64,000 bases of DNA from Candidatus Obscuribacterales bacterium (lineage in GTDB: Bacteria; Cyanobacteriota; Vampirovibrionia; Obscuribacterales; Obscuribacteraceae), in NCBI GenBank assembly GCA_965228855.1, contig CBDDIJ010000002.1, forward strand, positions 448,001 to 512,000, given 5' to 3'. Below, in pieces: positions 1,798 through 51,296 of this stretch. Numbering within the stretch: the stretch's first letter is position 1; every line of letters begins with the position of its first letter. Below the pieces are notes generated by a model. That model saw nothing but the letters and a program-made list of their open reading frames with translations, made no database searches and was not told the origin of the DNA. Made by a program: the position numbers and the translations under genes.

Positions 1798-2072
1798 CCA
1801 GATTTTTCTACTATACAAGCTAGTCTATGTTATTAGCGCCAGTCTTCTTTTCGGGCACTTCCAAATTTGCCTACTATAGAAGCCAGTCTGAACTATTAGC
1901 GCCAGTCTTCGTTTCGGTCACTTTAGAGTCTCAAGCTTACGCGCTGTCTATCCCTCGTTGACGGATCAGATCTTCCTACTATACAAGCTAGTTTAAATTA
2001 TTGGCGCCAGTCTTCGTTTCTGTCACTTTTAGAGTCTCAAGCTTACGCGCTGTCTATCCCTCGTTGACGGAT
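1798..2072 (+). repeat. three imperfect tandem copies beginning at a CTACTATA box (locus 1, left arm)
   Basis: Units start at ~1798, 1861 and 1966, with boxes at 1808, 1871 and 1976. All share (A/G)GCGCCAGTCTTC; copies 2 and 3 also share TAGAGTCTCAAGCTTACGCGCTGTCTATCCCTCGTTGACGGAT. Confidence 0.95.
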
Positions 2073-2102
2073 ATTCAAAAAAGCGGCAATGAGGGATAGA
2101 CA
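2051..2102. promoter_or_regulatory. 52-bp dyad element, locus 1
   Basis: TGTCTAT-CCCTCGT-TGACG-GATATTCAAAAAAG-CGGCA-ATGAGGG-ATAGACA; flanking boxes at 1976 (+) and 2194-2201 (TTTAGTAG, -). Confidence 0.85.
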
Positions 2103-2425
2103 GGCGAGCTGATATGCAGCCTCCGAGCTATAGGCAAATCCCCGAACTCCTGCTCGGTAGGGGAACCTCAGCTTAACCGTTAATACTATGCTCTTTAGTA
2201 GGCAAAGTGGCGGGTTTAAAAAGTTCAGCATAGGCCCCGACTTACATCAGGAGCGGTTTTAATCCGCCGCTGAGTGTAAGTCGGGGGCTGCTGAGGCAAC
2301 AGCGCAATGCGTATTTCGCGGGCATGGCGCGCGAGATCGTTTCCTGCTGCCAATCCTCAGTAAGAGCACTTTAGTGCCTCGTGCGGGCGCGATTTCCAGC
2401 CGGAAATCGATTGCGACTGAAGTCC

Positions 2426-2977
2426 TTAGCCCAGCATGACCGCAACTGCGGCATTGCGCCAGGGGGAGCCGAACTCGAATGCGTTTTCCGGCTGATGCGC
2501 GACGTCACCATCCTGACGGAACCACAGGCTGTTGCGGCTTTCGCGGCGGAACTGCAGCTGTTTTCCGTTGAGAAGGCGAACGTGACGCTCGCGCTCCGTA
2601 CGGTCGCGGGTGAAGTGCGACTCGACGACGATGCCGATCGGGAAGAAGATTCGCTCGCGCACGACGAAACTGCCGTCGAGGAATCGGATGGAGATCGAGC
2701 CGGCGACGTTCTCCTTCGAGCCCGAGGGCACGACTTCGATGGTCGCACAGAAAGTCTGTCCGTCCTCGGACGTCCAGACGTTGGTGTCGGCTTCGCGGCT
2801 GTAGGTGACGCCATCGGTGTCGACGAAGCGGTTCGGGATGCCGTTGTCGTCGTATCCGATTTGGCGCGCTTTGCCGTCAGCATAGCGAACTTCGCCGATG
2901 AGACCGTTGAGGCGGCAGGTGCCAGCCGGCAGAACGGTCAATTGAAACTCGTTAGAGTATCCTCTGTTCTTAGACAT
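2426..2977 (-). CDS. hypothetical protein (beta-rich)
   Basis: ATG at 2977 preceded by GAGG; GC-biased codons; stem-loop downstream at 2234-2288. Confidence 0.65.
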   Translation of the reverse strand: MSKNRGYSNEFQLTVLPAGTCRLNGLIGEVRYADGKARQIGYDDNGIPNRFVDTDGVTYSREADTNVWTSEDGQTFCATIEVVPSGSKENVAGSISIRFLDGSFVVRERIFFPIGIVVESHFTRDRTERERHVRLLNGKQLQFRRESRNSLWFRQDGDVAHQPENAFEFGSPWRNAAVAVMLG

Positions 2978-3618
2978 ATTAGTCCTCGCTTTGTTCAGGT
3001 GAATAGGCCGAAGATTGACACCGCAGGTTACGCGGTCACGAAACCTGGGCATCTTTGGTTACCCCGGAAAGTGTCGTCAGAGGTGTCCAGAAGCTCCGTG
3101 AGCTCGTACGACACCTGAGTGAACCAGAACCTCCAATCTACGAACGCGCCGACCAATCCAGAAGCTGATACAGCCCGTGGAGAGATTGGTTTTGTTGCGG
3201 TGCAGATAGGGGTTCGAGTGCGGAAGAGACCTGGAGAGGTTTGAGATGAGAAGCACTCACAACTTATGAACCGGGCGGGCTGCTGAACAATCTTTCTTAC
3301 ACTGCATAAACGCAGTGTGTACGCTGATTAAGCGCATGCGCTAGCGTTTCAGGTATTTTTAACAGTTCCGAAAACAGTTGTAGATGCTGCTATAGACGCC
3401 TTTTTTAAGCATTTCTTCCAAACCGTGATCGATTGACGTTTCAGGCAGTTGCGCCTGAAATCGTTGATGGTGAGCGCTTTTAGCAACCTGTGCTGAAACT
3501 AATACAAATTGCCCTGGCCGGAGTTCGCTCTGCAAACGCAAAAATATCCAAAGCAAATATTTTAGACCACTCTCGCGCTAATTAACACGAGCTCGCGAAG
3601 CTATCAGATCCAACATCC

Positions 3619-3647
3619 TTGACAACGGCGTAAAGAAAGCTTAGTAA
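3619..3647 (+). promoter_or_regulatory. possible sigma70-type promoter for the 3997 gene
   Basis: TTGACA-N17-TAGTAA; the -10 match is weak. Confidence 0.35.
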
Positions 3648-3996
3648 CCCTGGTTCTTGGAGCTAAACATCGCTAGGTTCTGAGTATCAGTTTTCTGTTT
3701 CAGCTTTAAGAACTTCGCTCCGTAAACCGTCCCCTCAACTCCATCTCAAACCACCGCACGTGAAGTTCAGCTTCGCGGCAGTACACGGGATGAGTTGGGA
3801 CTTGTCGTGACGGTACGCGTGTCGTGGATCTGACGAGCTGCATCAGAACTGTCGTGGAAACGGGCTCCGAATCGAACCGTGTTGTGCGGTCACGAGCGGT
3901 CCCAAGCGTGAGTCGGATTGACCATCCGGCTTTTGTCCATTCACAGGTCGAGCTGAACCAATCTCACAGCTCACTACGAGAGGAAACTCTACTTTT

Positions 3997-6161: not shown

Positions 6162-6283
6162 CCAACTCTCCCTACTATATGCCGACATAATCCGTAATTC
6201 CCCGACACGATTTTGATAGGCGCCAAATCTTTCTACTATACGCCGACATAATCCGTAATTCCCGACAAGCCTTCGGATAGGCG
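6162..6283 (+). repeat. two tandem ~61-bp copies beginning at a CTACTATA box (locus 2, left arm)
   Basis: CTACTATA(T/C)GCCGACATAATCCGTAATTCCC at 6172 and 6233; follows a stem-loop at 6117-6147. Confidence 0.95.
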
Positions 6284-6318: not shown

Positions 6319-6370
6319 TGGCAATGGTGCGTAGACGATTTTCGCGAATTCCGTCATAGCCAGATAGACA
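6319..6370. promoter_or_regulatory. 52-bp dyad element, locus 2a (left outer box degenerate)
   Basis: TGGCAAT-GGTGCGT-AGACG-ATTTTCGCGAATTC-CGTCA-TAGCCAG-ATAGACA. Confidence 0.8.
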
Positions 6371-6488
6371 GCGGCGACTTTTTACGCCCCTGCCAGGGTT
6401 GCAGAATCATCCCAACCCCGGGTCAGCTCAACGTTTTGAGCCGGAACAGGCTTATCATACTGTATAGTAGTAAGATTTGGTCGCCTTT

Positions 6489-6540
6489 TGGCAATGGTAC
6501 GTAGACGATTTTTGCCAAATGCGTCGTAGCCAGATAGACA
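6489..6540. promoter_or_regulatory. 52-bp dyad element, locus 2b (duplicate of 2a)
   Basis: TGGCAAT-GGTACGT-AGACG-ATTTTTGCCAAATG-CGTCG-TAGCCAG-ATAGACA. Confidence 0.8.
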
Positions 6541-6772
6541 GCGGCGACTCTTTGCAGCCCTGCACGGGTTGTGGAATCGCCACAATTCCCGGTCATCTCG
6601 ACGTTTTCAGCCCGAAGATAGCTACCAAGCCGTATAGTAGTAAGATTTGGTCAGAATCATCCCAACCCCGGGCCAGCTCAACGTTTTAAGCCGGAACACG
6701 CTTATCATGCCGTATAGTAGCAAAAGTTTTGGGAGAACCGGGCGCGAGAGAGTGCGCGCCCGGTTCGGAAAA

Positions 6773-14469: not shown

Positions 14470-14473
14470 ACCA

Positions 14474-16905: not shown

Positions 16906-18060
16906 ATGATGGAAGCCATCTACAATTGGCAGTTCATCCGCTTCGCCGAGCCGGTCTGGCTCTGGCTGGCGACTGGACTGATTTTACTGATTCCGATGTG
17001 GAAACGTCTGCGGCCCGCGCTCGCACACACGCACACGGGCATGCATAAGATCCGCTCCTCGAGCTGGCCGACAAAGGTCTGCCTGGCACTCTTCGCCGGC
17101 ACATGGCTGGCTATGACCGGCGCCATGATGAAGCCTCGCCTGACCCATCAAGAGATGCACGAGTACCTGGAGACCAGGGACTTCGTCATCGGCATCGACC
17201 GCTCAGGTTCGATGTACAGCGCCGACATCGAGTCTGCGGAGCTGCGCAGCGAGATCGACAATTTCGAGCAGGGCGAACGCGACAACGAGACGAAGCTTCG
17301 CGAGAAGTTTCCGACGCTGTACCCGTACCCGGCCGAAGATCCAAGCAAGCAACAGAAGGTGGAAGCAGGCAAGGTACAGCGCTTCCAGCTAGCACGCTAC
17401 GCCGCGTACCAGTTCCTCAAATCGCGTCCCGAAGGTGACCGCGCCGCCATGTTCACCTTCGACGACGAACCCTACTGGTCCTGGCCGCTCGGCAAGGACA
17501 TCAATGTAGTGCTGCGCAAAATTAGCGAGCTGTCGAAGGCATCCGGCGGCGGCACCAACTTCGACGGACCGTCCGGTTCCAACCGCCAGAAAGGCGCTTT
17601 TCAGGCGACCCTGGAGCAGTTCGATTCGCTCGGTCAGGCGAAGACGAAGGTGATCGTGTTCATCTCGGACGGCGATGCCGGAATCAATGAAGAACGGCAT
17701 CAATACTTCGTCGACCGCATGAAGGCTGAGGGGTCGAACATCCACATCTTCGCGCTCGTCTGTGGTTCACCCTCGCAAATGACCAATTCGAGCACGCAGT
17801 CTCTGCGCCGGCTGGTCGAGGAAGTGAACCCGAAAGATTGGCGCGACGCGCAAGGCGAAGCAGTCGACGCAGTGATCTGGGCGGGCAACGGCGAAGCTAT
17901 GAAGAAAGCCTTCGATCGAATCAGCGACCTGGAGAAATCCACGGTCGAACTCGAGGCAATCGAGAGCCACAAGCCGGTCGAGTCGGCGTTCGTGATGCTC
18001 GCCCTCGTGCTCGGTGGTCTGTTCCTGGGACTCTGCTACCTGTTCAGCGAGTCGTTCTAA
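16906..18060 (+). CDS. vWA-domain membrane protein (BatA-like)
   Basis: N-terminal F..P.WLWL, MIDAS DRSGS, GGTNF, ISDG, C-terminal TM. Confidence 0.88.
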   Translation: MMEAIYNWQFIRFAEPVWLWLATGLILLIPMWKRLRPALAHTHTGMHKIRSSSWPTKVCLALFAGTWLAMTGAMMKPRLTHQEMHEYLETRDFVIGIDRSGSMYSADIESAELRSEIDNFEQGERDNETKLREKFPTLYPYPAEDPSKQQKVEAGKVQRFQLARYAAYQFLKSRPEGDRAAMFTFDDEPYWSWPLGKDINVVLRKISELSKASGGGTNFDGPSGSNRQKGAFQATLEQFDSLGQAKTKVIVFISDGDAGINEERHQYFVDRMKAEGSNIHIFALVCGSPSQMTNSSTQSLRRLVEEVNPKDWRDAQGEAVDAVIWAGNGEAMKKAFDRISDLEKSTVELEAIESHKPVESAFVMLALVLGGLFLGLCYLFSESF

Positions 18061-18079
18061 CTTCACTGGAGACATTCAC

Positions 18080-19045: not shown

Positions 19046-19083
19046 TTCACCACTAACCACAACCTCTCAGAGGAGGGTTTTAC

Positions 19084-20253: not shown

Positions 20254-20361
20254 AGATGTTTCGGAACTGAATTTCTTACAGGCGGAGTCGCGTCTGACTT
20301 CGCCTTCCTCTAGGTCGGGCGCCACCAGTCGTGGTGCCTATTTTCTCAACGGAGTTTTGAT

Positions 20362-21387
<1,026 letters not shown>

Positions 21388-27057: not shown

Positions 27058-27119
27058 TTTGAACGCGACACTACGGGCGGTGCCGAGGACGCAATCGCGA
27101 CCTCGGCACCTTTGCCCCT

Positions 27120-27174
27120 CTCCGCTTTGCTACTATATGATCTCATGGCACCTCGCTACTATATGATCCCATGG
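27120..27174 (+). repeat. two tandem 26-bp copies containing the CTACTATA box (locus 3)
   Basis: GCTACTATATGATC(T/C)CATGG with boxes at 27130 and 27156; follows a stem-loop at 27079-27110. Confidence 0.9.
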
Positions 27175-27243: not shown

Positions 27244-27295
27244 TGTCTACGACTCATTGACGCTTTTCCGAAAATCCGTCGCTCTCTCGTAGACA
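27244..27295. promoter_or_regulatory. 52-bp dyad element, locus 3
   Basis: TGTCTAC-GACTCAT-TGACG-CTTTTCCGAAAATC-CGTCG-CTCTCTC-GTAGACA. Confidence 0.85.
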
Positions 27296-31933: not shown

Positions 31934-32073
31934 ACTGCGGGGCGGAAGATCCGGATTACATCCGGGTCTTTCGTTCCCCGATCTTTTCTACTATATCAAA
32001 CAGGACTAGCAAAGTTCCAAGACAAAGCCATCAACAGCCCTTTCGGAATACCTAGCCAGCTGCCACACAATTT

Positions 32074-32125
32074 TGTCTATGACCCGATGACGGTTTCGGG
32101 AGAAAGCGTCAACGCCTCGTAGACA
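32074..32125. promoter_or_regulatory. 52-bp dyad element, locus 4
   Basis: TGTCTAT-GACCCGA-TGACG-GTTTCGGGAGAAAG-CGTCA-ACGCCTC-GTAGACA; boxes at 31988 (+) and 32217 (-); stem-loops at 31945-31971 and 32240-32269. Confidence 0.9.
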
Positions 32126-32320
32126 GCCACCCGGTTTTTGACATGCGGAATCCGATAGAGTCGCCCGAAAGCGCTACCGACATGAGGTCCTGAGTTTCGA
32201 AACGAATACGCTGGTATATAGTAGTTATTTTGCGAAAAAGGAACCAAGAGGTTTAACCCTCCTGGTCCCAGTCCTCATGCGACTCAACGGTTTGAACGAT
32301 GAGTGCGCACTTGAAAAAAC

Positions 32321-35403: not shown

Positions 35404-35534
35404 ACCCACCGCAAGAAGCCGCATCCCGGGCTTCTTGCCTAAAAAACCGCCTACTACGCAATGTACTAACTTCATTTCTGAAAAATGCCTTGCTCACTGA
35501 GGTCTGGACATGAGCAATAAAAAGCTGAACACTT

Positions 35535-35586
35535 TGTCTATCCACGAATGACGCATTTGCCGAAATCCGGCATTGTCAGATAGACA
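35535..35586. promoter_or_regulatory. 52-bp dyad element, locus 5
   Basis: TGTCTAT-CCACGAA-TGACG-CATTTGCCGAAATC-CGGCA-TTGTCAG-ATAGACA; boxes CTACTACG at 35451 (+) and TATAGTAG at 35762 (-). Confidence 0.88.
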
Positions 35587-35844
35587 AGCGAATTCGAGGG
35601 CGATATTTTTGGCAAGTACAAATCTACCAATATCTTGCATATTAATATAGTCAATTATTACTTCAATCCTTTATACCGCATCACGCAACGCTCACAGAAG
35701 ACGGCCAAAAGTCAGCCTCGCAAAACTCAGAAATTTTTTTCAGCCCGATTATACTTATCCTTATAGTAGCAAAGTTTTTTAAAGGCTCGGTTCAGAAAGG
35801 GGGTTCCTTTCCAAACCGAGCGAAACCGGGATTGAACCCGTGCG

Positions 35845-36430: not shown

Positions 36431-38155
36431 TTACTCGCTCTCGCCGTCCCGCTTCGCCTCTTCCTTGCGGCGGCGATTGGCGAGGACGTGATTGCTGGCA
36501 GCGAAGACGATGAGCAGCATGAACAGAGCGCAGCCGGCAGCGATTGCCACCGGGTTGCTCGTCCAGTCGCCCTCGCCGAACTGCTTCTTGGCGTCGTCCT
36601 TGACGGGCGCCGTCAGCGGGTCCGGGTGGTTCGCCTTCAGCAGCTTGATGGCTGCGTCGAGCTGTTCGTCGACCTTGGCGCCCGGCGTACGCTCGACCAC
36701 GACCTGCGGGGGGATGCCCTTGTTCGACAGGTTGTAGCCGGACGGCGTCAGGTAGTCCATGGTCGTGATGTACATGGTCCCACCCGGAGGGATGCCACCC
36801 GAGATGTAGCCCACGCCCTTGCCGTAGGTCGTGGTACCGAGGATGGTGGCGCGACCGGAGTCCTTGAGGGCACCGGTGACGATCTCCGAGGAGCTCGCCG
36901 AGCTGCCGTCGACCAGAACGACCATCGGGACCTTGTAGAAGTCCGTGATCAAGGTGACGATCTCTTGCGGGGCGCCCATGAAGTCATGCTTCAGCGGAGC
37001 GATCGTCTCGTAGCTCTGGTGAGTGACCATGCGGCCCTCACGCGTAGTGCTGTTGACGATGGTGCCCTTCTCCATGAAGATGCTGGCCACCTGCAGCGCG
37101 ATGTCGACGACGCCGCCGGGGTTGCCGCGCAGGTCGAAGATCAGCCCATTGAGATGCCCACCGGAAGCCATGTGCATCTGCTGCAGACCGCGGACGAACA
37201 GCGGGAAAGCCTGCTCATCGAACTGGGGAAGACGGATGTAGCCGATGTTACCCGGCATGACATTGACGACGACCGCAGCATCGGCAGCCGGCGCTACGGT
37301 GAGAACTTCCTTGTACTCCTTGCCGTTGCGGCTGAGCACAAGTTCGATCCTCGCGCCGTCTTTGCCCTCGAGCAGAGCTTCCGCGTCCTCCTTGCTGAGC
37401 CCCTTGAGCGGCTTGCCGTTCGCGGAGATCAGGTCATCGTACTTGTGGATGCCCGACTTGTAGCTCGGCGTTCCCCAAGTCGTGTAGTCGACCCGGTAGG
37501 AGCCATCCGGCTTCTGGACGATCCAGATGCCCAGGTCGGAGATTCCGGCCTCGGCGTTGGCGCGCGCCTTCTTGATCTCGGTCGTGGTGATGTACTTCGT
37601 CCAGGGGTCGTGCAGGCTGCCCAGCATCTCCTTGAGAGCGTTTTCGAGCTCCTCGGGAGTGGTGAGCTTGCCCTTGTACTTGTCCTGGTACTTGTACCAA
37701 TCCGCCAGCCGATCCGGGTCGTGGTACGACTGGGCGACCTGCTGCCAGACCTTCTGATAGACGGTCTCGAGCATCTCGGGCGTGGGCTTGCCGGGCGCGC
37801 CCTGATTGCGACCGAAGAGCTGCTGGATCATCCGGGGGTCCGTGATGATCTGCAGTTCGCCGGGAACCTGCGGAGCGACCACCGGAGTGTCCGGCTTGGC
37901 AGGCGCGGCGCTCGGCGCAGGGGTAGTTGGCGCCGTCGTGGGGGCGGCGCTCGGAACAGGCGTCGGCGCGGGCGTGGGCACGGCCGGGGTCTGCGGGGCA
38001 GGAGCCTTGGGGGCTCCGGAATTCGGGACGACATCCAGCCCCAGGAAGGGATGGGCGGGCGTAGCTTTCGGCTCATCGGCGACGGAGTACGTCGCGCCAG
38101 TGACCGCGAGGAACGCCAGCATCGTCGCGCTGACGATGATTTTTCTTACCGACAT
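36431..38155 (-). CDS. S41A C-terminal processing peptidase with PDZ, Pro/Ala linker and C-terminal TM
   Basis: SLHDPWT.Y, IGYIRL, DLRGNPGG, SASSSE, TYGKG. Confidence 0.93.
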   Translation of the reverse strand: MSVRKIIVSATMLAFLAVTGATYSVADEPKATPAHPFLGLDVVPNSGAPKAPAPQTPAVPTPAPTPVPSAAPTTAPTTPAPSAAPAKPDTPVVAPQVPGELQIITDPRMIQQLFGRNQGAPGKPTPEMLETVYQKVWQQVAQSYHDPDRLADWYKYQDKYKGKLTTPEELENALKEMLGSLHDPWTKYITTTEIKKARANAEAGISDLGIWIVQKPDGSYRVDYTTWGTPSYKSGIHKYDDLISANGKPLKGLSKEDAEALLEGKDGARIELVLSRNGKEYKEVLTVAPAADAAVVVNVMPGNIGYIRLPQFDEQAFPLFVRGLQQMHMASGGHLNGLIFDLRGNPGGVVDIALQVASIFMEKGTIVNSTTREGRMVTHQSYETIAPLKHDFMGAPQEIVTLITDFYKVPMVVLVDGSSASSSEIVTGALKDSGRATILGTTTYGKGVGYISGGIPPGGTMYITTMDYLTPSGYNLSNKGIPPQVVVERTPGAKVDEQLDAAIKLLKANHPDPLTAPVKDDAKKQFGEGDWTSNPVAIAAGCALFMLLIVFAASNHVLANRRRKEEAKRDGESE

Positions 38156-38238
38156 GGTATTGTCCTCAAGTTAAAGTTGCGGCAAAGGCGCGACACCACA
38201 TCTGGTATCGCGCCTTGCCTTTGTTGAAACTAGAAGTC

Positions 38239-39855
38239 TTACTTGGTCGGCGCCGCCGGAGCGGTGCCGGTGCCGTTGCCGCTGAGCGCCTTCTTGGCCG
38301 CGTCGAGTTCCTTCTGGAACGCATCGACATTGGCCTTGCGAGTGTCCTCGCTCTTCTTGGCGTGAGCTTCGGCCTTGGTGACCGCATCCTGGACAGCCTT
38401 CTTGGCGGCGTCCAGCTGCATGTCCTTGGTCGGATCGACGATCACCTCATCGGGGTTGGTCACCTCGATATCGGGAATCACGCCGACCCAGTCCATGGGC
38501 ACACCACCGGGGAGGAACTCGAAGGTGGTGACGTGGATGTTGCGGTCGAACGGCAGCGGCACGACCTGCTGGCCGACGCCCTTGCCATGCGACGTCTTGC
38601 CGACGATGACGGCGCGCTTGTTGGCCTGCAGGAGCCCCGAGAGAATCTCGGAAGCCGAAGCAGAGCCTTCGTCGATGAGGACAGCGATCGGCATGTCCTC
38701 GGGAACGATCATCTCCTCGCGTTCACCGCTGACCATCCCGATCTTGCCGGGCTGCGCGCTGGACTTCATCAGCTGGAGAGCGAACTCCGGCTGCAGGACG
38801 GTCTTGGTCTCGACCATGGCGTCGCCACGGCGCTCCTTCATGGTCAGCAGGGTGCCTTCCTTGAGGATGAACTGACCGACCGTCTCGACGGCATCCAGGC
38901 GACCGCCCGGGTTGCCGCGCAGGTCGATGACGATGCCCTTGCCCTTGGCGGCGTTGGTGAGCGCCTCGTACATCTCCTTCTCGACGAACCGGCTGGACCA
39001 GTCGTTGAGCTTGATGTAGGTGATGCCGTTGCCGAGGTCCTTGACCTTGGTCACCTTGGACACGACCTGGGCGCGGGTGATGTCGATGGTCTGTTCGACC
39101 GTACCACCCTTGCCGTCGTCGCGCGTGACGGTGATCTTGACGACGGTGCCCGCCTTGCCGCGAATGGTCTTCACGACATCGTCCAGGCTCTTGCCGTTGA
39201 CGTCGGCGCCGTCCACCTTGGTGATCCGGTCACCCTTCTTGATGCCGGACTTCTCGGCAGGACCACCTTCCATCGGCTCTTCGACGATGATCGGATGGGC
39301 GTCCGAAACCGCTTTCAGCGGCTCGAAGATCTGCTTGAGCTGTTCCTTCGTGGCCTTCTCGCCGAGCTTGCGAGCCTGGAGGATGGCTTCCGCCTGCCCC
39401 TTCAGCTTGAGCTGGGCGCCGATGCCGACGAGCGTGGCATCGAACTGCTCGCGCTCGGCCTTGTTGCGAGCCGGCGGGTTGTAGTAGTCGAAGCGCTGCC
39501 CGAGGCTCTGGATCATCTCATAGACAGCCTTGTCGGCCGACTCTTCGGTGTCGAGAGCGTTGTCATTGGCATGCTTGTTCTCCCACTCGGCGGCCCACTT
39601 GGCGCGCGCGGCGGGGTCCGACAGCGTGATGTGCCGGTCGCGGAGGTTTTCGAAAACCTCCTTGTAGAGCTTCTTGCCGTCGAACTGGACGGCCGGTGCG
39701 GTCGCCGGAGCCGACTTGGCGGGGGCGACGGTGGACTGAGCGACAGGGCTCGAAACAGGCGTGTCGTCTGCCGACGCGAAGGTCAGCGGCGCGGACAGCA
39801 TGAAAGCCGCCACGGCAAGAGCGAACACGCGCGAGGCGATGTTTCGCGATTTCAT
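38239..39855 (-). CDS. S41A C-terminal processing peptidase with PDZ
   Basis: GIGA, GPAEKSGI..GD, DLRGNPGG, SASASE, SHGKG. Confidence 0.93.
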   Translation of the reverse strand: MKSRNIASRVFALAVAAFMLSAPLTFASADDTPVSSPVAQSTVAPAKSAPATAPAVQFDGKKLYKEVFENLRDRHITLSDPAARAKWAAEWENKHANDNALDTEESADKAVYEMIQSLGQRFDYYNPPARNKAEREQFDATLVGIGAQLKLKGQAEAILQARKLGEKATKEQLKQIFEPLKAVSDAHPIIVEEPMEGGPAEKSGIKKGDRITKVDGADVNGKSLDDVVKTIRGKAGTVVKITVTRDDGKGGTVEQTIDITRAQVVSKVTKVKDLGNGITYIKLNDWSSRFVEKEMYEALTNAAKGKGIVIDLRGNPGGRLDAVETVGQFILKEGTLLTMKERRGDAMVETKTVLQPEFALQLMKSSAQPGKIGMVSGEREEMIVPEDMPIAVLIDEGSASASEILSGLLQANKRAVIVGKTSHGKGVGQQVVPLPFDRNIHVTTFEFLPGGVPMDWVGVIPDIEVTNPDEVIVDPTKDMQLDAAKKAVQDAVTKAEAHAKKSEDTRKANVDAFQKELDAAKKALSGNGTGTAPAAPTK

Positions 39856-40249
39856 GGTATTGCTCCTAAAGTTGAATTCTTCGGTTGCGACCCCTTTGGA
39901 TGGGGACAGGGTTAGAAGAGTGGTCTAGAGCGTTGAAAACATGAGGTGACGGCTTGCCACGCGCATGGGAGTCAAAGGATGGCCGCAGGTTTGGACAACT
40001 GCCAGCCATTCCTTGACACCACATGTGGTGACAAGGTCCAGTTCGGGATGAAGCGTGCTCTAACGCCCGACCCGTTACGCACGAGTCGACTGGAACCACC
40101 TGAGGGAAGGCGCACTTGACGATGAGCGTCCGCATCTGCTCAGCGACAACTACGCCCTCCCGACATCCGGCACCGGTCTGATTGCTCAGAACCGGCACCG
40201 AATGTGGTGGCTTAGGTCGACTGGCAGACTGTTGCCGATGCTACCGTAT

Positions 40250-41389
40250 TTAGCGCTGCTCCCAGGGCCGCGGGACGAGCTGCTCGATCTGCTTGAGCAG
40301 TTCGCGATTCTCCTCATCCGAGAGCGTGGCACCGTGGTACAGCACCCGTTCGCACTTCGTCAGCGCACTCTCGATCTTGTCGAGCTCGGGGTCACCCTCG
40401 AGCCGGTCGCGCACCTCGAGGAAGGTGGCGGGTTCGATCGGCACGCCCTTGGTCGCGCCCAGATAACGCCGGAACGCCGACGCGATCTGCTTGTAGTGCC
40501 TGTACTCGAAGCCTTCCGCCTTCGCTTCCGCGAAGACCTTGTCGAAGACCTTCCAGGCAGCCGCCTTGGGAGGCAGCACCTTGCGCGGACGCACGCGATT
40601 GATGTACTTCGCCACTTCGATGCCGGGCAGGAGCCCGATCATGAAGATGGCGAGCGCAATCACGGGGATGATCATCCAGGACGAACCGAGAGGCTTGGCC
40701 TCCAGGTCGCCCTCGAGCAGCGCTTCGCCGTTGTCCGCCGTGGGCGAACGCGAGACGACGAAGTCAGGCGTGGTCAGGCGCTTGAAGTTGGGCGTCTTGC
40801 CGTCGGGCGCAAGCTCGGTGGCGTAGCGCAGGTCGAGGTTGAACACCACGTTGTCCTTCGGCACCCAGGTCACGACCGTGAGGTCGAGCCGATAGAGCAC
40901 CTTGCCGTTCTGCAGCTTCTGGCTGCGAACCACCGCCGGGGCAGCGAGTTCGAAGTCGGAGCCCTCGAAGCCGAGGACTTCCTGCTTCAGCGACGTGAAG
41001 TCGATCGTGACGTTCGGGTCGACGGCGATCAGCACGACCAGGGGAATCCGGTCGCCGATGCGGTAGCCGAAGTGGCGCGCGTTGCCCAGTCGAATCTCGA
41101 CCTTGCCGTCTTCGCAGACTTTGCGGACCGGATTCTGGGGCTTGGGAGGCTCGGGCGGCTGAGCATTGTAGCCGCCGCCGTCCTCGGGATATTCATAGGG
41201 GTAGCCGCCGTACGCCGGCGCCTGTGCCCCCGATGCGTCGGCCATGACACCGCAGGCGGTGCTGGCCTTGCTCTGGGCGGAGCCCGGACCGGCAGCCTGC
41301 GCCGCCGCATCCTGAGCCATCGCGGTTGCTCCGACGGCGACCGTCAGAGCGAGAACCAGAGCCTTCAATCCAAACAGTTTCGTTTTCAT
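40250..41389 (-). CDS. exported/membrane-anchored protein (BatD-like position), paralog of 22527..23642
   Basis: Signal peptide, HFGYRIGDRIP, KRLTTPDFVVS, one TM. Confidence 0.78.
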   Translation of the reverse strand: MKTKLFGLKALVLALTVAVGATAMAQDAAAQAAGPGSAQSKASTACGVMADASGAQAPAYGGYPYEYPEDGGGYNAQPPEPPKPQNPVRKVCEDGKVEIRLGNARHFGYRIGDRIPLVVLIAVDPNVTIDFTSLKQEVLGFEGSDFELAAPAVVRSQKLQNGKVLYRLDLTVVTWVPKDNVVFNLDLRYATELAPDGKTPNFKRLTTPDFVVSRSPTADNGEALLEGDLEAKPLGSSWMIIPVIALAIFMIGLLPGIEVAKYINRVRPRKVLPPKAAAWKVFDKVFAEAKAEGFEYRHYKQIASAFRRYLGATKGVPIEPATFLEVRDRLEGDPELDKIESALTKCERVLYHGATLSDEENRELLKQIEQLVPRPWEQR

Positions 41390-41401
41390 GATTTTGGCTC
41401 C

Positions 41402-42346
41402 TTACCGACGGTGTCCAGCGAACAACCGCATGAGTTTGGGATAAGCGGCGACGCCTTCTTCGGTCGAAACAACCGTCCAGTCGACGTGCGCCGAACGGAA
41501 GAACTCGAAGAGGGCAGTCTCATGCCGTTGGAAGTTCTCGGCGAACTTGGCGCGATTGGCCTTGCTCAGCCAGATCGAACGGCGCTCGCCAGTGAGCAGG
41601 TCCTGGAAGGTGTAAACACCGAACCCGCTGGGGAGCTCGCGTTCACGCAGGTCCTGCACACAGATGCAGACGACGTCATGCTTGACGGCCGTCCGCTTCA
41701 GAAGCGTCTTCTCCTCGTCCGTGAGGTTGAGGAAGTCCGAGATGATGAACACCAGGGACCGGCTCTGTCCGCTGACGGCCTTGAGGGCCTTCATCAGACC
41801 AGTGGTACCGTCCTTGGTGTCTCCACCGCGGCGGGCGGCACGCTCGATCGCCGAACCTTCGACAATCGAGGCAAGCGCGGGGAAGAGCATGACCTTGGCG
41901 CTGCGCGCCGGGAGGTAACGCTCGACCGCCTTTTCCGAGTAGGCGATGATGCCGACGCGGTCGCCGGTTTCGTCCGCCGACTTGATGATCGAACCGGTCA
42001 GTTCGCCGGCAAGATGCCGTTTGATGGTACGGAACGAACCGAACTCCATCGTCATACCGGTGTCGACCAGGCAGTACATCTTCACGTCACGCGGTTCCCG
42101 ATAGAAAACCGTGCAGACCGTCTGACCGCCCGTTTGTGCCGTGGCGTGCCAGTCGATCGAACGCGGATCGTCACCGGGCTCGTAAACACCGCGAGAAACA
42201 AGATCGTATCCCGTATTCCCGCGCTTCTTGCCCTTACGGCCAGCCCCGGAGGGCATGGCAGTCGAGCTGCGCCAGGTAATCGGGATCGGATGAGAAACGA
42301 CCCACTTAACGAGTTCGCGGACCGTTTCCCGTGTATTTGTCTTCAT
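41402..42346 (-). CDS. DUF58-family protein
   Basis: YEPGDDPRSIDWHATA, GDRVG, IISDF, DLRERELP. Confidence 0.92.
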   Translation of the reverse strand: MKTNTRETVRELVKWVVSHPIPITWRSSTAMPSGAGRKGKKRGNTGYDLVSRGVYEPGDDPRSIDWHATAQTGGQTVCTVFYREPRDVKMYCLVDTGMTMEFGSFRTIKRHLAGELTGSIIKSADETGDRVGIIAYSEKAVERYLPARSAKVMLFPALASIVEGSAIERAARRGGDTKDGTTGLMKALKAVSGQSRSLVFIISDFLNLTDEEKTLLKRTAVKHDVVCICVQDLRERELPSGFGVYTFQDLLTGERRSIWLSKANRAKFAENFQRHETALFEFFRSAHVDWTVVSTEEGVAAYPKLMRLFAGHRR

Positions 42347-42445
42347 GTGAATACTCCGGAAGCGGTTTGAGTTAGTTCAGCCGAGAGCGGCGATCACTAA
42401 ATAGCGACCGCCGCTCTGGCTTGGTAATAAGTACCGAACGACCGG

Positions 42446-43498
42446 TTACTTGCCCTTGGCGCGACCGACCACCGGGACCTGGGACTCGACCGCCGTGATG
42501 AACGTGTCGGTCTGGAAGCGATCGAACGTCGCTTCCTGAGTCAGGATGAGGCGGTGACGGACGGCGTCGCGGTAGACCGACTTGACGTCATCCGGCTCGA
42601 TGTGAGTCCGGCCGTCGAGCCAGGCGTTGCAGGCGGCGCCCTTCTGCACCCAGATGCCGAGACGCGGCGAGGCACCGTAGGCGATGCGCTCTTCGAACGA
42701 CTTACCCTCGGCGTCGCGGATCTTGCCGAACGACGGGTCGGTCGGACGAGTGGCGCGCATCAGGTCGACGATGTACTCGCGGATGGCGTCCGAAGCGTTG
42801 TCGACGACCTGCTGGACTTCCGTGCGGATGGCGCGGAGGTCGGACAGATCCATGACCGGCTCGACCTTCTCGGTGGCGTTGCGACCGTGGACCTGGGTGT
42901 TGGCCAGGACCTTGATCTCGTCGGCGCGCGAGACGTAGCCCATCATGATCTTGAACATGAAGCGGTCGAGCTGCGCTTCCGGCAGAGCGAAGGTGCCTTC
43001 CTGCTCGACCGGGTTGATGGTCGCCATGACCATGAACGGATCGGGCAGCATGATGCGCGGCACGCCGGGGATGTCGGCGAAGCGCTCCTGCATCGGCTGC
43101 AGCAGGGCAGCCTGGGTCAGGGCGATGCCGCGGTTGAGCTCGTCGGCCAGGAGCAGGTTGACGGCCGACTTGTAGTTGGCGTCGACGGCGCCCAGGAGCG
43201 GGCCGGGAACGAAGTCGTACTTGCCGGTGACGGGGTTGAAGACCCGCGTGCCCTTCACGTCGGAGGGCTTCAGGTCCGGGTCGAACTGGATGCGGCCGGA
43301 GGTCGCACCGTCGATGGTCTTCTGCAGGGTGTTGATCATCAGAGTCTTGGCCAGACCGGGCATCGACTCCAGAAGCACGTGACCGTCGGCCATCAGGGCG
43401 AGGGTGAGGGCGCGCTTCACGGGGGTGTAACCGACGATCACCTTGTCCATCTCGGTGGACAGGGCGTTCGCCTTGATAACGAGCTGATTCTTAGACAT
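42446..43498 (-). CDS. moxR: MoxR-family AAA+ ATPase
   Basis: GHVLLE, PGLAKT, RIQF.PDL.PSD, LADELNR, NPVEQEGTF.LPEAQLDRF, GASPR. Confidence 0.95.
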   Translation of the reverse strand: MSKNQLVIKANALSTEMDKVIVGYTPVKRALTLALMADGHVLLESMPGLAKTLMINTLQKTIDGATSGRIQFDPDLKPSDVKGTRVFNPVTGKYDFVPGPLLGAVDANYKSAVNLLLADELNRGIALTQAALLQPMQERFADIPGVPRIMLPDPFMVMATINPVEQEGTFALPEAQLDRFMFKIMMGYVSRADEIKVLANTQVHGRNATEKVEPVMDLSDLRAIRTEVQQVVDNASDAIREYIVDLMRATRPTDPSFGKIRDAEGKSFEERIAYGASPRLGIWVQKGAACNAWLDGRTHIEPDDVKSVYRDAVRHRLILTQEATFDRFQTDTFITAVESQVPVVGRAKGK

Positions 43499-43600
43499 GG
43501 TCGTAATCTCCGTTTGGGATTTGAGAGAAAGGTTGCTACGAAAGAGGCGGACCATCGGGTCCGCCTCTAGAGGTTTGCGTTGGACGAAACACTGGAGTCG

Positions 43601-44677
43601 TTAGCGAACCAGGTCCTTCCTGGGCAAGACTCCTCGGATGAACAAGCCGGTCAGAAGGATGATCGCCAGCCCCAGGGGGTACTGGAAGATCGGATCCTCT
43701 TTGGTCTCGGCTTTGCTTCCACCGAGGGAGGCTGCCCAGCTGATTTTCAGCTCGCCGCCGTTACCCGGATCGAGTGGAAGGTACTCGGCGCCAGACATGG
43801 CGACGAGCTTCGAGAGATTGCTCTCCTCACGGCCGGACAGCGACACCTTGCCTTCCTCCTGGAAGTATCCGGTGAGCTGCCCTTCCTTGTTGTATTCGGG
43901 AATCGGCGACGGCGAAAGCGAGCCGACGCCGACGACGATGAAGCGAATGCCCTTTTCCCGAATCTTCGCGACCGCGTCGGCGAGAATCTTCTCGTCGCCG
44001 GTGAAGCCGCCGTCGGAGAACAGGACGATGACCTGCTGCCGATTGGCGACCTTGTCGCGGTCCAGCATCGCCAGAGCCATGGTCAGACCTTCGGCGTAAT
44101 CGGAACCGCCGCCAGGGGCGTTGCCGACACGAATCCAGTTGTCCATGACCCACTTGGTCGACGTCCAGTCGTCGGTGAGGGGAATCTGCTCGAAGCCGTT
44201 GCCCGAGTAGGTGACGATGCCGAGCTGGTTTCCGATGATCGCAGGCATGACCTGCGTCTGGAGAATCAGCTTGGTGTAGTCGAGGCGGTTGCCGTACGGT
44301 CCCGGCACCAGGTCAGGCGTGTAGCCGTTCTTCGAGGGCATGAACGGGCGGTATTCCTCCGCCGCCATGCTCTTCGAGACGTCGATCACGCCCACGACCT
44401 GCAAGCTCCCCGCCCGAACATTGGTGGGCAGAGACTTGGAGATGGGACCGGCGGCGGCAGCCACCATAAGCGCGACCGCGATTGCCCACACAGAGGCAAT
44501 CGCGACTTCGCCCGCGAACCTGACTGCGCGCGTGTAGCGCGACACCAGCTTCTCTTCGCCGTATGCCGCACGAGCCTTGCGCCGGAGGTCGTACCCCAGG
44601 TAGCAAAGCCCGTACACAGCAGGGACGACCAGCAAGAGCGCTGTCAGGTAGTGCGGACGCAGGAATGTGATATCCAT
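43601..44677 (-). CDS. vWA-domain membrane protein (BatB-like)
   Basis: DVSKSMAAE, APGGGSDY, LFSDGG; clear paralog of 19084..20253. Confidence 0.88.
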   Translation of the reverse strand: MDITFLRPHYLTALLLVVPAVYGLCYLGYDLRRKARAAYGEEKLVSRYTRAVRFAGEVAIASVWAIAVALMVAAAAGPISKSLPTNVRAGSLQVVGVIDVSKSMAAEEYRPFMPSKNGYTPDLVPGPYGNRLDYTKLILQTQVMPAIIGNQLGIVTYSGNGFEQIPLTDDWTSTKWVMDNWIRVGNAPGGGSDYAEGLTMALAMLDRDKVANRQQVIVLFSDGGFTGDEKILADAVAKIREKGIRFIVVGVGSLSPSPIPEYNKEGQLTGYFQEEGKVSLSGREESNLSKLVAMSGAEYLPLDPGNGGELKISWAASLGGSKAETKEDPIFQYPLGLAIILLTGLFIRGVLPRKDLVR

Positions 44678-44689
44678 AGCGTCTTCTCC

Positions 44690-45307
44690 TTACAGAGTGT
44701 TGGGCTTGCCTTTGCCGGGCTGGTCGCCAGGTTCCTGTCCAGGAGCCTGCTTCTTGCCTTGTCCGGGCTGAGGCTTGCCTTTGCCTTTGCCCTTGCCCTG
44801 ACCTTCGGCCTGCTGTTTGTTGTTCTTGAAGAGAAGCTCCAGGTCGTACTTGACCTGCAGGGCTTGCTCCTCCAGGCGAACGACGTCTTCCTTCGTCACC
44901 TGCTCGAAGCCGGGGACGTTGGCATAGTCGTTGCCGGGGTTGAGCCGAAGCGATTCCTTGAAGGCCTCGACGGCGGGCTCAGCCTGCCGGAGTCTCAGGA
45001 GCGCTTTGGCTTTGTGGAACTGCGCGAGAGCCGCACGTTCACGGGAAGGCGCCGGGTACAGGAAGCGCTCCATCCAGGACGACGCCCGGACGCGCTGCTT
45101 GTACACCGCCACGGAACGGTCGAACGCTTCGATCGCGCCCTTCATCCCGTCTTCGTCCTGCGCGGTCTGGTACATGGTGAGACCGACGTTGTAGTACGCC
45201 GCCTGGGCGTCCTGCCACGTCAGAAGGCGGAATCCGAATCCGCCGACAAGCAAGCCGCCGACGAGAATCGCCAGCAGCCACAATCGTGATTTGCTGAAAA
45301 ATTTCAT
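44690..45307 (-). CDS. TPR protein (BatC-like)
   Basis: TM, YNVG, AQFHKAKAL, SLRLNPGN, G/K/Q/P tail; paralog of 18080..19045. Confidence 0.8.
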   Translation of the reverse strand: MKFFSKSRLWLLAILVGGLLVGGFGFRLLTWQDAQAAYYNVGLTMYQTAQDEDGMKGAIEAFDRSVAVYKQRVRASSWMERFLYPAPSRERAALAQFHKAKALLRLRQAEPAVEAFKESLRLNPGNDYANVPGFEQVTKEDVVRLEEQALQVKYDLELLFKNNKQQAEGQGKGKGKGKPQPGQGKKQAPGQEPGDQPGKGKPNTL

Positions 45308-45334
45308 TTTCAGGTTTCTCCTAAAGGTTAGCTG

Positions 45335-46318
45335 TTAGGCGTCCTCGCGGACGAGTGCAGCGGCTACGAGGAAGAGGCAGAGCACGAGCCCGGCGCCAAT
45401 CAGGAAGAACTGATAGATGTCGCGATAGCTCACGGTCTTCTCGACCTCAACACGGGATTTCTCGAGTTCGGAGATCTTCTGGAAGCCGGCCTTCATGTCG
45501 GCGCCGTTTCCGACGACGATCACCTGACCGCCAGTGGCTTCCGTGATCTTGCGCAGGTCGTTTTCCGCATTGGGATTGGACCAGCCGATCGCGAGCGTGT
45601 AGATCTTGATGCCGCCCGCTTGCAACATCGGAAGGAGCTGTTGCATGCGCTCCTCCGGAATGGAGTCCTCACCATCGGTGACCATGATGAGAACCTTCGA
45701 CTGAGCCTGACCGAGCTCCTTGAAGTGGTCGACTGCAGCCTGGATGGGACCGGACTCACTGGAGAAGTCGGTGCCACCGCCGTTGTAGGTGCCGGTGCGG
45801 CCCACGTTCTTGAGCTCGATCACGCGCAGGTCCTTCGAAAGGGGCCAGCTGTAATAGACGCTCGTGTCGAACATGAACAGCGCGACGCGATCACCTTCCC
45901 GTTCCTTGACGAACAGGCTGATCGCCTTTTCGGCGAGCTGGATGCGTTTGACGGTCTGAACCGGTTGTCCAGCCGCATCCTTCACTTCACCAGCGACAGC
46001 GAGCTGGTCCGGGTCAGAAATCTGACCTTGCATCGAACCAGAGATGTCGACTGCGATGATGAAGTCACGAGTAATGATCACCTCTTTCTCGCCGACGTCG
46101 GGCAGCTGCGGTCGCGACATGGCGAGGGCAGCGAGCACGAAGAATGCGACAAGAAGGATCTGAGGCAGACGTCCCACGAGGGGAACGGAACGCACGTTGC
46201 CGTGCATGCCGACTTGCGTGTGCCCCAAAGCTCTCCGGCGCCGGTATGCCAGCCACAAGGCGGGCACAGCCAGAAGCGCCAGCAGCATAAACTGCGGGTA
46301 TGCGAACGTGATGGGCAT
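45335..46318 (-). CDS. vWA-domain membrane protein (BatA-like)
   Basis: FAYP..LL, RPQ, DISGSM, GDRV, GGTD, VTDGE, ISELEKS. Confidence 0.9.
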   Translation of the reverse strand: MPITFAYPQFMLLALLAVPALWLAYRRRRALGHTQVGMHGNVRSVPLVGRLPQILLVAFFVLAALAMSRPQLPDVGEKEVIITRDFIIAVDISGSMQGQISDPDQLAVAGEVKDAAGQPVQTVKRIQLAEKAISLFVKEREGDRVALFMFDTSVYYSWPLSKDLRVIELKNVGRTGTYNGGGTDFSSESGPIQAAVDHFKELGQAQSKVLIMVTDGEDSIPEERMQQLLPMLQAGGIKIYTLAIGWSNPNAENDLRKITEATGGQVIVVGNGADMKAGFQKISELEKSRVEVEKTVSYRDIYQFFLIGAGLVLCLFLVAAALVREDA

Positions 46319-50287: not shown

Positions 50288-50713
50288 ATGACAACCTTCC
50301 TCAAGCTGCTCGGAAGTGCAATCGGTGCGGTCGTCGGCTTTGTCATGCTCGTCGCATTTCGCGGCATGCTTGCACCGCTTCTCAACGAGGGCTCCGCCCT
50401 CATGATCGCCGTCATCCTCGGCATCGTCGGACTGGCGATCGGTACCACGATCGGCGCCTACGAGAAGGATAACGGTCCGGTCGGCATCCTCAAGGCTAAC
50501 CTCGTGGGCGTCGGCTTCCTGATCGCGATGGCCGTGAGCGTCATCCTCGCGTGGTTCGCCATCACGATGCTGGTCCCGCGCGCCGAACCCCTGACGATGA
50601 CCTGGCTCGGCGCCTTCTCGCTGGTGCGCGCCATCCTCTTCGTCGCCGTCCCGGCAAGCAGCGGTTTCTTCATCGCCGGCAAGCTCGCTTCCACTTCCAA
50701 AACCTCGGCATAA
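50288..50713 (+). CDS. hypothetical 4-TM membrane protein
   Basis: AGGA RBS, hydrophobic ORF, GC3 bias. Confidence 0.75.
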   Translation: MTTFLKLLGSAIGAVVGFVMLVAFRGMLAPLLNEGSALMIAVILGIVGLAIGTTIGAYEKDNGPVGILKANLVGVGFLIAMAVSVILAWFAITMLVPRAEPLTMTWLGAFSLVRAILFVAVPASSGFFIAGKLASTSKTSA

Positions 50714-50723
50714 GGAACTAACG

Positions 50724-51059
50724 ATGCATCAACTCGAGTTCGTCGTGGACCTGCTGGTCTGGTCCTTCCTCAGCGGCTTCGTCGGCGTCGTCGTCGGCCA
50801 GCTGCTCCCCAGCCGCGTGGCCAGCCTCCGGGTTGCCACCTGGATCTTCCTGGCTGCCTGGGCGGTGATCGTCACCACCGCAGTCGTCATGCTCGGTCTC
50901 GCCACATTCGTCGGCGACCCGAACCAATACGTGCCGGCCTGGCTCGTCGCCGGAGCTCTGCTCTCCTACGTCTTCGCCGCCGGCATCACCCGCGGTATCG
51001 ACATCCGCGCCGCCGGCTACTGGCGCTGGTTCCCCCGCACTCCGGTGCTGAAGAACTGA
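50724..51059 (+). CDS. hypothetical 3-TM membrane protein
   Basis: AAGGA RBS, hydrophobic ORF; stem-loop at 51069-51099. Confidence 0.75.
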   Translation: MHQLEFVVDLLVWSFLSGFVGVVVGQLLPSRVASLRVATWIFLAAWAVIVTTAVVMLGLATFVGDPNQYVPAWLVAGALLSYVFAAGITRGIDIRAAGYWRWFPRTPVLKN

Positions 51060-51104
51060 ACTGATACGACGGTGCAGCGAACCCCTTTCGCTGCACCGTT
51101 TCCT

Positions 51105-51169
51105 CCAAATCTTCCTACTATATTCCGGCGTATACGCGAAGACCCCCTACTATATTCCGGCGTATCCGG
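51105..51169 (+). repeat. two tandem 32-bp copies beginning at a CTACTATA box (locus 6, left arm)
   Basis: CCTACTATATTCCGGCGTAT with boxes at 51115 and 51147. Confidence 0.92.
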
Positions 51170-51244
51170 AGATGTCCGGCGAAGCTGCATCGACAGCAGT
51201 CTTAAGACCTGCGACTCCGCGATGGAGTGTGGGAAAGGGCAATT

Positions 51245-51296
51245 TGTCTACGGTACGTTGCCGAAATTCGGCAAATCTGTCTACGCACGATAGACA
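51245..51296. promoter_or_regulatory. 52-bp dyad element, locus 6
   Basis: TGTCTAC-GGTACGT-TGCCG-AAATTCGGCAAATC-TGTCT-ACGCACG-ATAGACA. Confidence 0.85.

Follow-up and report, generated by a model that had tools for sequence, protein, structure and literature searches.

Seven copies of a 52-bp inverted repeat (the dyad), spread over a 64,000-nucleotide stretch of a Candidatus Obscuribacterales genome (the window), mark the centres of a larger intergenic element with the order box, arm, dyad, arm, box. The window is G000:C2:448001-512000, where G000 is the 8.2-Mb assembly GCA_965228855.1. The sequence-only reading that preceded this work put the feature at 52 bp. That size is too small because the outer boxes were missed, and the true feature measures about 140-250 bp. 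The element is real, strongly non-random, apparently undescribed and more complex than first reported. From sequence comparison we tentatively favour the reading that the dyad is the centre of a phased array of duplex protein sites, up to four of 19 bp each, which would organise the origin domain. The host belongs to the non-photosynthetic sister group of cyanobacteria. It was compared with a close sister genome (G007), six further congeners (G001-G006) and genomes from other Obscuribacterales genera (G065, G091 and G092); G000 is 95% complete and G007 91%. Genes were called with our own hexamer-scored open reading frame caller, which leaves some error in orientations and distances.

All seven 52-mers were found at the claimed positions and align without gaps, and the half copy reported at 1945 is present with a length of 22 nt. 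The proposed consensus, TGTCTAY-N7-TGACG-N14-CGTCA-N7-RTAGACA, is exact only in the copy at 32074, the other six showing one to four mismatches; the central dinucleotides (CA, GC, GC, CG, GG, CC and GG) are as described. The N7 spacers had been called mostly non-complementary, which holds only in part: 6, 2, 1, 3, 4, 3 and 5 of the seven positions pair in the window copies, while across the genome 14 of 171 non-redundant copies, where 3.3 would be expected, show full complementarity of the middle five bases. A relaxed pattern matched seven times in the window compared with 0.00 in 100 dinucleotide shuffles. An iterated position weight matrix (PWM) search of G000, with the block-shuffled and the reversed genome as controls, yielded 210 dyad copies, none of them below 30 bits. 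A single further match, partial and of 15 bits, fell in the range 10-30 bits, and neither control gave any match above 0 bits; decayed copies are almost absent from the G000 score distribution.

Each dyad half is itself a 19-bp pseudo-palindrome, YGKC-N11-GMCR, and the halves flank a 14-bp core that runs from T-rich to A-rich. Throughout the larger set they stand at a fixed 33 bp from each other. The central dinucleotides are variable (8 classes), with self-complementary ones over-represented (103/171 versus 66.6 expected), which is one point left for a central crossover. The dyad folds better than its shuffles (mean z about -3.8) and shows weak left-right covariation, while complementarity at core positions 20-22 is below chance (z -2.6, -3.0 and -1.4). 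The window contains no Rfam match. A box-less dyad subfamily with TGTCAAT as outer and AGCGACG as inner motif occurs at G000:C2:77322, 137257, 322787, 552317 and 652729; it forms 73-bp tandem arrays, whose copy number per locus is higher in G007.

The outer box is a 19-bp site, CTAC-TAY-N8-GTAT when read inward (CTACTAY-N7-MGTAT), and has the 4-11-4 layout and C-TAY core of the outer dyad half; its inner half is the weaker one. It is present at 141 of the 161 dyad loci. The motif TATAGTAG occurs 292 times in G000, 231 of these no more than 250 bp from a dyad centre, and faces outward on both dyad sides at 65 loci, on one side at 76 and on neither at 20; the 65 two-sided loci are bounded by CTACTATA...TATAGTAG terminal inverted repeats. 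Distances between box and half-site centres cluster at 75-76, 85-88, 96-100 and 107-110 bp, in steps of 11-12 bp. The arms between box and dyad are 34-36% identical across different loci (25% when shuffled), and W-W steps recur along them about every 10 bp; they neither fold beyond shuffles (z -0.1 to -0.3) nor contain a covarying helix. The earlier proposal of a duplex binding site with sub-sites is supported by the fixed 33-bp spacing of the halves and their helical phasing to the outer boxes, and further by the phased W-W steps and the lack of a covarying helix outside the dyad.

A complete two-armed element of 237 bp (31988..32224) fills the gap between two convergent terminators in the window. 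It comprises the left box (CTACTATA..., 31988..32006, plus strand), the exact-consensus dyad with its two half-sites and 14-bp core (32074..32125) and the right box (ATAC-N11-GTAG, 32206..32224, minus strand). On the left lies the terminator-like hairpin of a haem-peroxidase gene (28793-31933; hairpin 31939..31977, plus strand) and on the right that of gene 32321-33631 (hairpin 32240..32269, minus strand). This arrangement recurs in G000: a terminator-like hairpin stands outside the box, mostly 13-20 nt off, with a mode of 14 nt and a sharp lower edge. CTACTA follows 10-19 nt past 70 of 107 hairpins at dyad loci, versus 6 of 423 other hairpins even when the whole of the following 70 nt is allowed. 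Boxes face gene ends more readily than gene starts (148/199 versus 56/95, P 0.01); where a box faces a gene start, that gene's promoter adjoins it, as judged by eye.

The dyads are concentrated around the replication origin. Within C2:70-1125 kb (1.05 Mb, 13% of the genome) lie 174 of the 210 copies, together with dnaA (793 kb), dnaN, rnpA, yidC and the GC-skew minimum (790 kb), so that the dyad-rich domain spans about -720 to +330 kb around oriC. All but two of the dyads (208/210) are intergenic, with 88 in convergent, 103 in tandem and 17 in divergent gaps; the background of 3413 gaps comprises 391, 1956 and 1066, respectively. A classical operator, which the sequence-only reading had considered equally possible, is therefore unlikely, since dyads favour convergent gaps and are few in divergent ones. 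Dyads occupy 54 of 135 convergent junctions inside the origin domain and 12 of 1012 outside, and boxes accompany 80 of 251 terminators inside compared with 7 of 496 outside. Boxed terminators being nearly confined to the domain, terminators alone cannot account for the pattern. The domain (C2:70000-1125000) also differs in composition: GC content at third codon positions (GC3) is 0.62-0.82 versus about 0.54 elsewhere, and coding density is lower. Its high gene-level GC3 is common to the congeners and is an ancestral trait; the idea that the elements raise local GC3 was rejected, dyad-free orthologues having the same GC3 (rho 0.86). Elsewhere in the genome, an isolated dyad at C3:729322 lies alongside an array of 21 tRNA-like genes on one strand (C3:724518-727973).

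Comparison between genomes shows that the box is ancestral and that the dyad, abundant only in the G000/G007 lineage, spread later. The two sister genomes are 95% identical over the 560 kb compared, and 56 of 57 G000 loci carry a dyad in G007 too, often in a different tandem number. Constraint falls on box and dyad, which differ between the two by 1.2% (box) and 4.6% (dyad halves), compared with 13% for the arms; four-fold sites give 12% and the rest of the intergenic DNA 5.5%. In 55 pairs the divergence reaches 16-30% near the box, a value possibly inflated by retained paralogous copies, and falls to 4.5% from 12 nt outside. Arm substitutions show no adenine bias, and the box-dyad spacing is the same in 51 of 69 pairs. 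The window loci are also covered by three further strains of roughly 90-95% identity, two of which have back-joints (140 and 117 bp) of the same duplication geometry. The dyad pattern matches 199 times in G000 and 181 times in G007, compared with zero or one match in each of 102 other family genomes; G006 has two dyads by another pattern, one of them orthologous to a G000 site. Boxes, in turn, follow orthologous dyad-free terminators in G001-G006, and the dyad-free congeners have no excess of box pairs spaced 150-180 bp.

In the genomes of other genera, a hairpin lies 10-22 nt upstream of 9 of 50 box matches versus 2 of 150 controls, where 20 of the 50 sites came from a pattern requiring upstream pyrimidines; many of the remaining sites have, by eye, a reverse terminator downstream. 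Of 38 exact box matches in five genomes, 34 end in T though A was equally permitted. Box matches lie near dnaA in G065 (2/3 within 160 kb) and G091 (3/5 within 270 kb) and on the dnaA contig in G092 (3/14), small numbers for all three. A genome-collection scan returned at least 57 dyad loci from at least two records, and a metagenome scan found 66 loci, all in two assemblies that represent a close relative (mean identity 91%), and no distant lineage with the dyad. One record titled Acidobacteria (L083/L084) carries dyads and is 93% identical to G000:C2:562-566 kb; it is most likely a mis-binned contig. IMG/VR contained no exact dyad, and the 59 matches to a looser pattern, none of which reached -11 bits, were set aside as chance.

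The junctions of local duplications indicate how the element grows. Across G000 and the G007 stretch, 110 of 163 junctions, not all independent and called by a method that absorbs microhomology, lie 5-13 nt beyond the box; the opposite end is variable, and 31 of the 163 have it at the far dyad edge. Twenty cross-locus arm pairs are 70-88% identical, well above the 34-36% baseline. Among the alignments listed, about ten or more share a stretch running from the box to the far dyad edge, some share the arm-side half only, and one match extends across the whole two-armed unit at two loci. Local alignments tend to end at conserved motifs, yet the arms match and the flanks do not. Box-arm-dyad cassettes thus undergo tandem duplication and have been copied from locus to locus. 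Duplication break points were not tied to hairpin distance (rho -0.02, n=43). Target-site duplications of 2-13 nt were sought in 65 two-ended loci, and no excess of exact repeats was seen (best z 2.4), although old insertions could have lost them.

No enzyme emerged as the agent of this copying. G000 and G007 lack PF01797 (Y1/RAYT) as well as PF00239 (PF07508 was not searched), which leaves the suggested likeness to large serine recombinase att sites without support. Inversions with break points at dyads, a check proposed earlier, are absent from the 57 loci over about 590 kb collinear between G000 and G007 (anchors: 247,045 forward versus 93 scattered reverse), and no joints at dyad centres appeared in four runs over three loci. 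The Y2 HUH family (PF04986) had no match in five genomes, control genomes being equally silent. The Xer-like recombinases of the origin domain are genus-core and, in these searches, not lineage-specific. A retron-like reverse transcriptase (RT) with a C-terminal extension adjoins three dyads (C2:944459-945628); dyad-free congeners have possibly orthologous RTs that score like it. A second short RT (C3:2800508) is present in all 8 genus genomes. Neither a resolvase-domain recombinase nor a RAYT was found, and target-site duplications and inversions were lacking too, so that att sites, repetitive extragenic palindromes (REPs) and miniature inverted-repeat transposable elements (MITEs) are not supported as descriptions of the element.

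The idea that the elements serve as platforms for gene cassettes was set aside: thirteen of 30 large G000-G007 indels lie within 250 bp of a dyad, compared with 20% of intergenic bases, but the count includes IS110 and tandem expansions and the chain mis-stepped at C2:607-657 kb. At C2:1001889-1003783 a 1.9-kb one-gene insert, its right end at the dyad edge, replaces a dyad and part of an arm, both of which are retained in G007 and another relative. Two IS110-family elements, with transposases 52% identical and the same donor ends, have all seven of their copies inside dyads: type A at C2:197176, C2:987606, C5:860914 and C5:1461394 (target C-GT-CATAG), and type B at C2:774642, 858503 and 1120732 (target TTTGT-CT-ACG). 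Their left ends hold matching left and right target guides and a common donor guide, as in bridge RNAs, and one type A copy has an altered left guide. This targeting shows that the dyad is stable and abundant as a target, not that IS110 mobilises it. A sister repeat consists of two TGCAAW-N4-WTTGCA palindromes 33 bp apart around a similar T-rich/A-rich core and forms 102-103 bp tandem arrays. It has 44 matches in G000, 41 in G007 and none in the six other congeners; G000 sites are C2:145609, 218879, 318183, 572609, 907853, 1040794, 1043744 and 1488872 and C5:885502 and 1605012. At C2:1040794 it occupies the place that the main element has in a close relative.

Chromosome organisation was ranked first among the possible functions because boxed terminators are all but absent outside the domain, because no chromosomal ParB was detected in the genus and because a single-copy protein with a MerR-type helix-turn-helix (HTH) is conserved in 69 of 104 family genomes. 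In this model a dimeric, putatively chromosome-organising protein would bind the up to four 19-bp sites cooperatively on one helix face and would bridge or wrap DNA between neighbouring transcription units. Box and dyad halves, both C-TAY-N8-G in the 4-11-4 layout, would share one reader; cassette copying would occur at the edges of the bound complex; and closeness to terminators and promoters would reflect sites squeezed into the sole free space. In this way the arrays would label the megabase around the origin, in the manner of ram sites and RacA. ParB_N had no match in seven congeners, its sole match in G000 being a 727-aa frame on contig C4, and a parS pattern gave no cluster near oriC in G000.

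The candidate reader (G000:C2:82811-84028) combines the MerR-type HTH, which carries a MerR_1 domain, with a probable coiled coil (by eye) and a long, disordered and variable tail, and its homologues are 73-100% identical over 140 aa. Its PDB matches place CarH (E 1e-4) ahead of RacA (E 4e-4). In the ESM Atlas all matches were below 0.9, with MerR_1 clusters at ranks 17 and 25 including RacA, which we take as a lead only. The dyad ends fit the CarH recognition sequence TnnACA, which is described as read in 11-bp repeats (PMC9304148). A second candidate (C2:338357-340330) has a short N-terminal domain that looks like a ribbon-helix-helix (RHH) by eye only; the RHH label found no Pfam match and at best a PDB match of E 0.49. 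A box-like site, met without having been selected for, precedes the MerR-type gene at 13 of 30 loci, in either orientation, and at 8 of 30 loci one precedes the second candidate, relative to control windows that were mostly coding. A separate lead, a sigma-54-activator-like response regulator (C2:1713001), was dropped, as it lies outside the origin domain. A broader proposal, that ParB-less Obscuribacterales organise the origin by a new system in which a RacA-like protein reads a family-wide 19-bp border site, grown in this lineage into self-propagating phased four-site arrays that act as centromere-like sites and transcription boundaries, is doubtful on the present sequence evidence.

Several observations weigh against organisation of the origin region. 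The circular phase test leaves the period unfixed (R 0.74-0.78 from 10.75 to 12.5 bp). Exact box patterns are just modestly above reversed-pattern controls, with 56 versus 31 in 104 family genomes and 38 versus 23 in five genomes, G065 having 3 versus 6. A host function restricted to one lineage is unusual, and the MerR-type domain is 97-99% identical in congeners almost without dyads, so it suits the box better than the dyad. The link between candidate and box is circumstantial, the box usually following the upstream gene's terminator in the loci listed. The origin domain is also rich in high-GC3 genes, and the sites may therefore follow gene expression and not the origin.

Finally, the tight 13-20 nt distance to the hairpin is more directly explained by a transcriptional roadblock or insulator, in which RNA polymerase would be held up by a box-bound protein while in the pyrimidine tract of a weak intrinsic terminator; the dyad, through cooperative binding, would turn this into a two-way barrier between transcription units. 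Eukaryotic TTF-I and Reb1, which terminate by roadblock, offer an analogy. Besides the position of the box after the hairpin and its preference for gene ends, pyrimidine-tailed hairpins with a box are poorer in T over the first 8 nt (4.2 versus 5.0; 63 versus 304 hairpins; P 2e-5), and hairpins precede boxes in other genera as well. However, the T count is equal over all hairpins (P 0.76), boxed hairpins are richer in T than the unboxed ones of the origin domain, and 56 boxes face gene starts, mostly without a hairpin. The origin bias is left unexplained and duplication break points do not track hairpin distance, and we regard this mechanism as rather unlikely. Somewhat less likely still is a selfish origin, with a non-autonomous box-arm-dyad cassette (138-152 bp) parasitising the host's terminator-side box through one-ended, rolling-circle-like or target-primed copying; the motifs would then be retained because only intact cassettes are copied again. 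It would account for a dyad abundant in G000 and G007 only and missing from orthologous congener gaps, for the similar arms at different loci and for junctions mostly just outside the box, and the IS110 elements target the dyad as IS621 is described to target REPs (PMC11208160). Yet no candidate enzyme was found among Y1/RAYT and PF00239 in G000 and G007, the Xer-like genes and the retron-like RT were not lineage-specific in these searches, target-site duplications were lacking at the two-ended loci and the arms have no adenine bias; nearly all loci, moreover, are shared with G007 and decayed copies are nearly none. Origin organisation, roadblock and selfish copying are not exclusive of one another.

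The remaining alternatives fare worse. A two-way activator-dependent promoter, with the dyad as enhancer and the box TATAGT as -10 element driving antisense RNA at terminators, is improbable. TATAGT is similar to a -10 hexamer, and the phasing, with a distance of 100-145 bp, is reminiscent of promoters of the enhancer type. Initiation of antisense RNA close to terminators is documented (PMC6978322). But G000 has no sigma-54 (PF04552), the -24/-12 motif GG-N10-GC is absent from the box logo, there is no -35 element, TATAATAG is not enriched (47 versus 292 for TATAGTAG), and the relatives' box is often CTACTAC, which breaks the -11 A, and occurs in either orientation. A site-specific recombinase that used the dyad as its attachment or core site and crossed over at the centre is largely refuted and very improbable: a size near 50 bp, the excess of self-complementary central dinucleotides and the cross-locus pairs sharing the arm-side half only speak for it, against which stand the absence of PF00239 from G000 and G007 and of inversions among the 57 loci, the 8 dinucleotide classes and the lack of an exact dyad in IMG/VR. 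An RNA or single-strand hairpin of the REP or attC kind is equally remote. The folding and weak covariation of the dyad are what it predicts, but the core is under-complementary at positions 20-22, the arms have neither fold nor covarying helix, Rfam gave no match and the helical phasing points to duplex DNA.

The other window loci show the same parts in different states of completeness. At the first, the dyad 2051..2102 is preceded by an outermost left box (1808..1826), a duplicated left box (1871..1889) and a left box in phase with the dyad (1976..1994), all on the plus strand, and followed by a right box (2183..2201, minus); the truncated dyad (1945..1966, plus, 22 nt) is the end of a tandem duplication whose start lies outside the box at 1871. 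The dyads 6319..6370 and 6489..6540 are copies 1 and 2 of a 170-bp tandem unit, with two left boxes from a partial duplication (6172-6190 and 6233-6251; 6172..6251, plus), three right boxes (6452-6470, 6622-6640 and 6702-6720; 6452..6720, minus) and a terminator-like hairpin 14 nt past the last of these (6735..6766, minus). The one-armed locus with dyad 27244..27295 has two left boxes (27130-27148 and 27156-27174; 27130..27174, plus) after the terminator-like hairpin (27079..27110, plus) of gene 25522-27057. Around the dyad 35535..35586, a left box (35451..35469, plus) lies 12 nt past the hairpin 35411-35438, and a right box (35751..35769, minus), 174 bp from the dyad and outside the usual spacings, adjoins the terminator of gene 35845-36141. 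The last dyad (51245..51296) has two left boxes (51115-51133 and 51147-51165; 51115..51165, plus) 16 nt past the hairpin 51070-51098 and two right boxes of the TAGTAA variant (51366-51384 and 51413-51431; 51366..51431, minus). Among the genes of the window, two paralogous operons face each other (16906-27057, plus, and 36431-46318, minus), each encoding vWA, TPR, vWA, MoxR AAA and DUF58 proteins and two S41 proteases with PDZ domains. A catalase-like gene followed by a 1046-aa animal haem peroxidase (27734-31933) is kept in congeners, and a PrkA, PrkA, DUF444, SpoVR cluster occupies 52953-61077 on the minus strand.

The element bears on how bacteria without ParB-parS position and organise their origins, a subject on which a literature search turned up nothing for the sister group of cyanobacteria that lacks photosynthesis. 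The site is defined and mapped at about 160 loci, natural variants of it exist and a candidate protein can be named; together these make the question testable in vitro without culturing the organism. Were roadblock to prove true, bacteria would have an example of intrinsic termination assisted by a sequence-specific protein. Within a single lineage, an array of sites that looks functional is also seen to have spread, and the IS110 copies supply two natural variants of bridge RNA, which have one donor guide in common and two different target guides; one has a GT target core.

No published description of such an element was found in a literature search at title and abstract level that took in few subscription journals. 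Unlike parS/ParB, the system has no parS-pattern cluster near oriC and no ParB_N in seven congeners. MITEs of the Correia and RUP type are similar in having a 225-250 bp unit with 8-bp inverted ends, and one whole-unit copy at two loci was seen among the alignments listed. They differ in that the present element has no target-site duplication, its ends pre-exist in relatives without the interior, its arms are unrelated at most loci and half units are copied oftener than whole ones. Large serine recombinase att sites are also about 50 bp with two sub-sites per half, and integron attC simple sites have a similar 7-5-7 layout; here, in contrast, no PF00239 enzyme was found, the centre is variable, and there are no rearrangements, no extrahelical asymmetry and no cassette array. 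The matS sites of MatP are likewise sequence-specific and limited to one chromosomal domain (PMC4914108), but on the terminus and not the origin side, with a different sequence and no composite phased arrays. REP, BIME and REPIN sequences are described as lineage-specific intergenic palindromes in their hundreds, placed mainly after genes and between convergent ones and in tandem clusters (PMC3733652), and as targets of IS110 elements (PMC11208160), in all of which they resemble the dyad. In contrast to REPs, it has no RAYT (PF01797) in G000 or G007, although CGTC REPs are also reported without one (PMC3733652); it is a 52-bp site and not a 20-40 bp stem-loop ending in an unpaired GTAG or CGTC tag, carries GTAG at the 3' foot inside the symmetric part and not as an unpaired 5' tag, pairs weakly, keeps a fixed helical phasing to an older host site and is confined to one chromosome domain where most REP families are genome-wide.

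The closest likeness in arrangement is to ram/RacA of Bacillus subtilis and to ricS/RicO of S. aureus, where many short sites are spread unevenly around oriC. RacA is described as binding 25 regions from -412 to +200 kb with the consensus TGACGCCGGCGTCA (PMC4914108), and RicO as having nine sites over about 700 kb (10.64898/2026.03.06.710092), against about -720 to +330 kb here. The inner motif TGACG...CGTCA equals the ram arms, and G000 encodes a candidate protein with a MerR-type HTH and a probable coiled coil. Unlike the element, ram is a 14-bp palindrome, TGACGCCGGCGTCA, with a 4-bp centre (PMC4914108), where 14 bp separate the arms here, and ricS is an 18-bp non-palindrome (10.64898/2026.03.06.710092). 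Neither has four phased 19-bp sites, here with putative binding, at about 130 loci with a fixed tie to terminators. The element thus lacks the defining properties of ram, REP, MITE, att and parS sequences, is REP-like in its distribution and would work like the ram/ricS type of origin-domain site.

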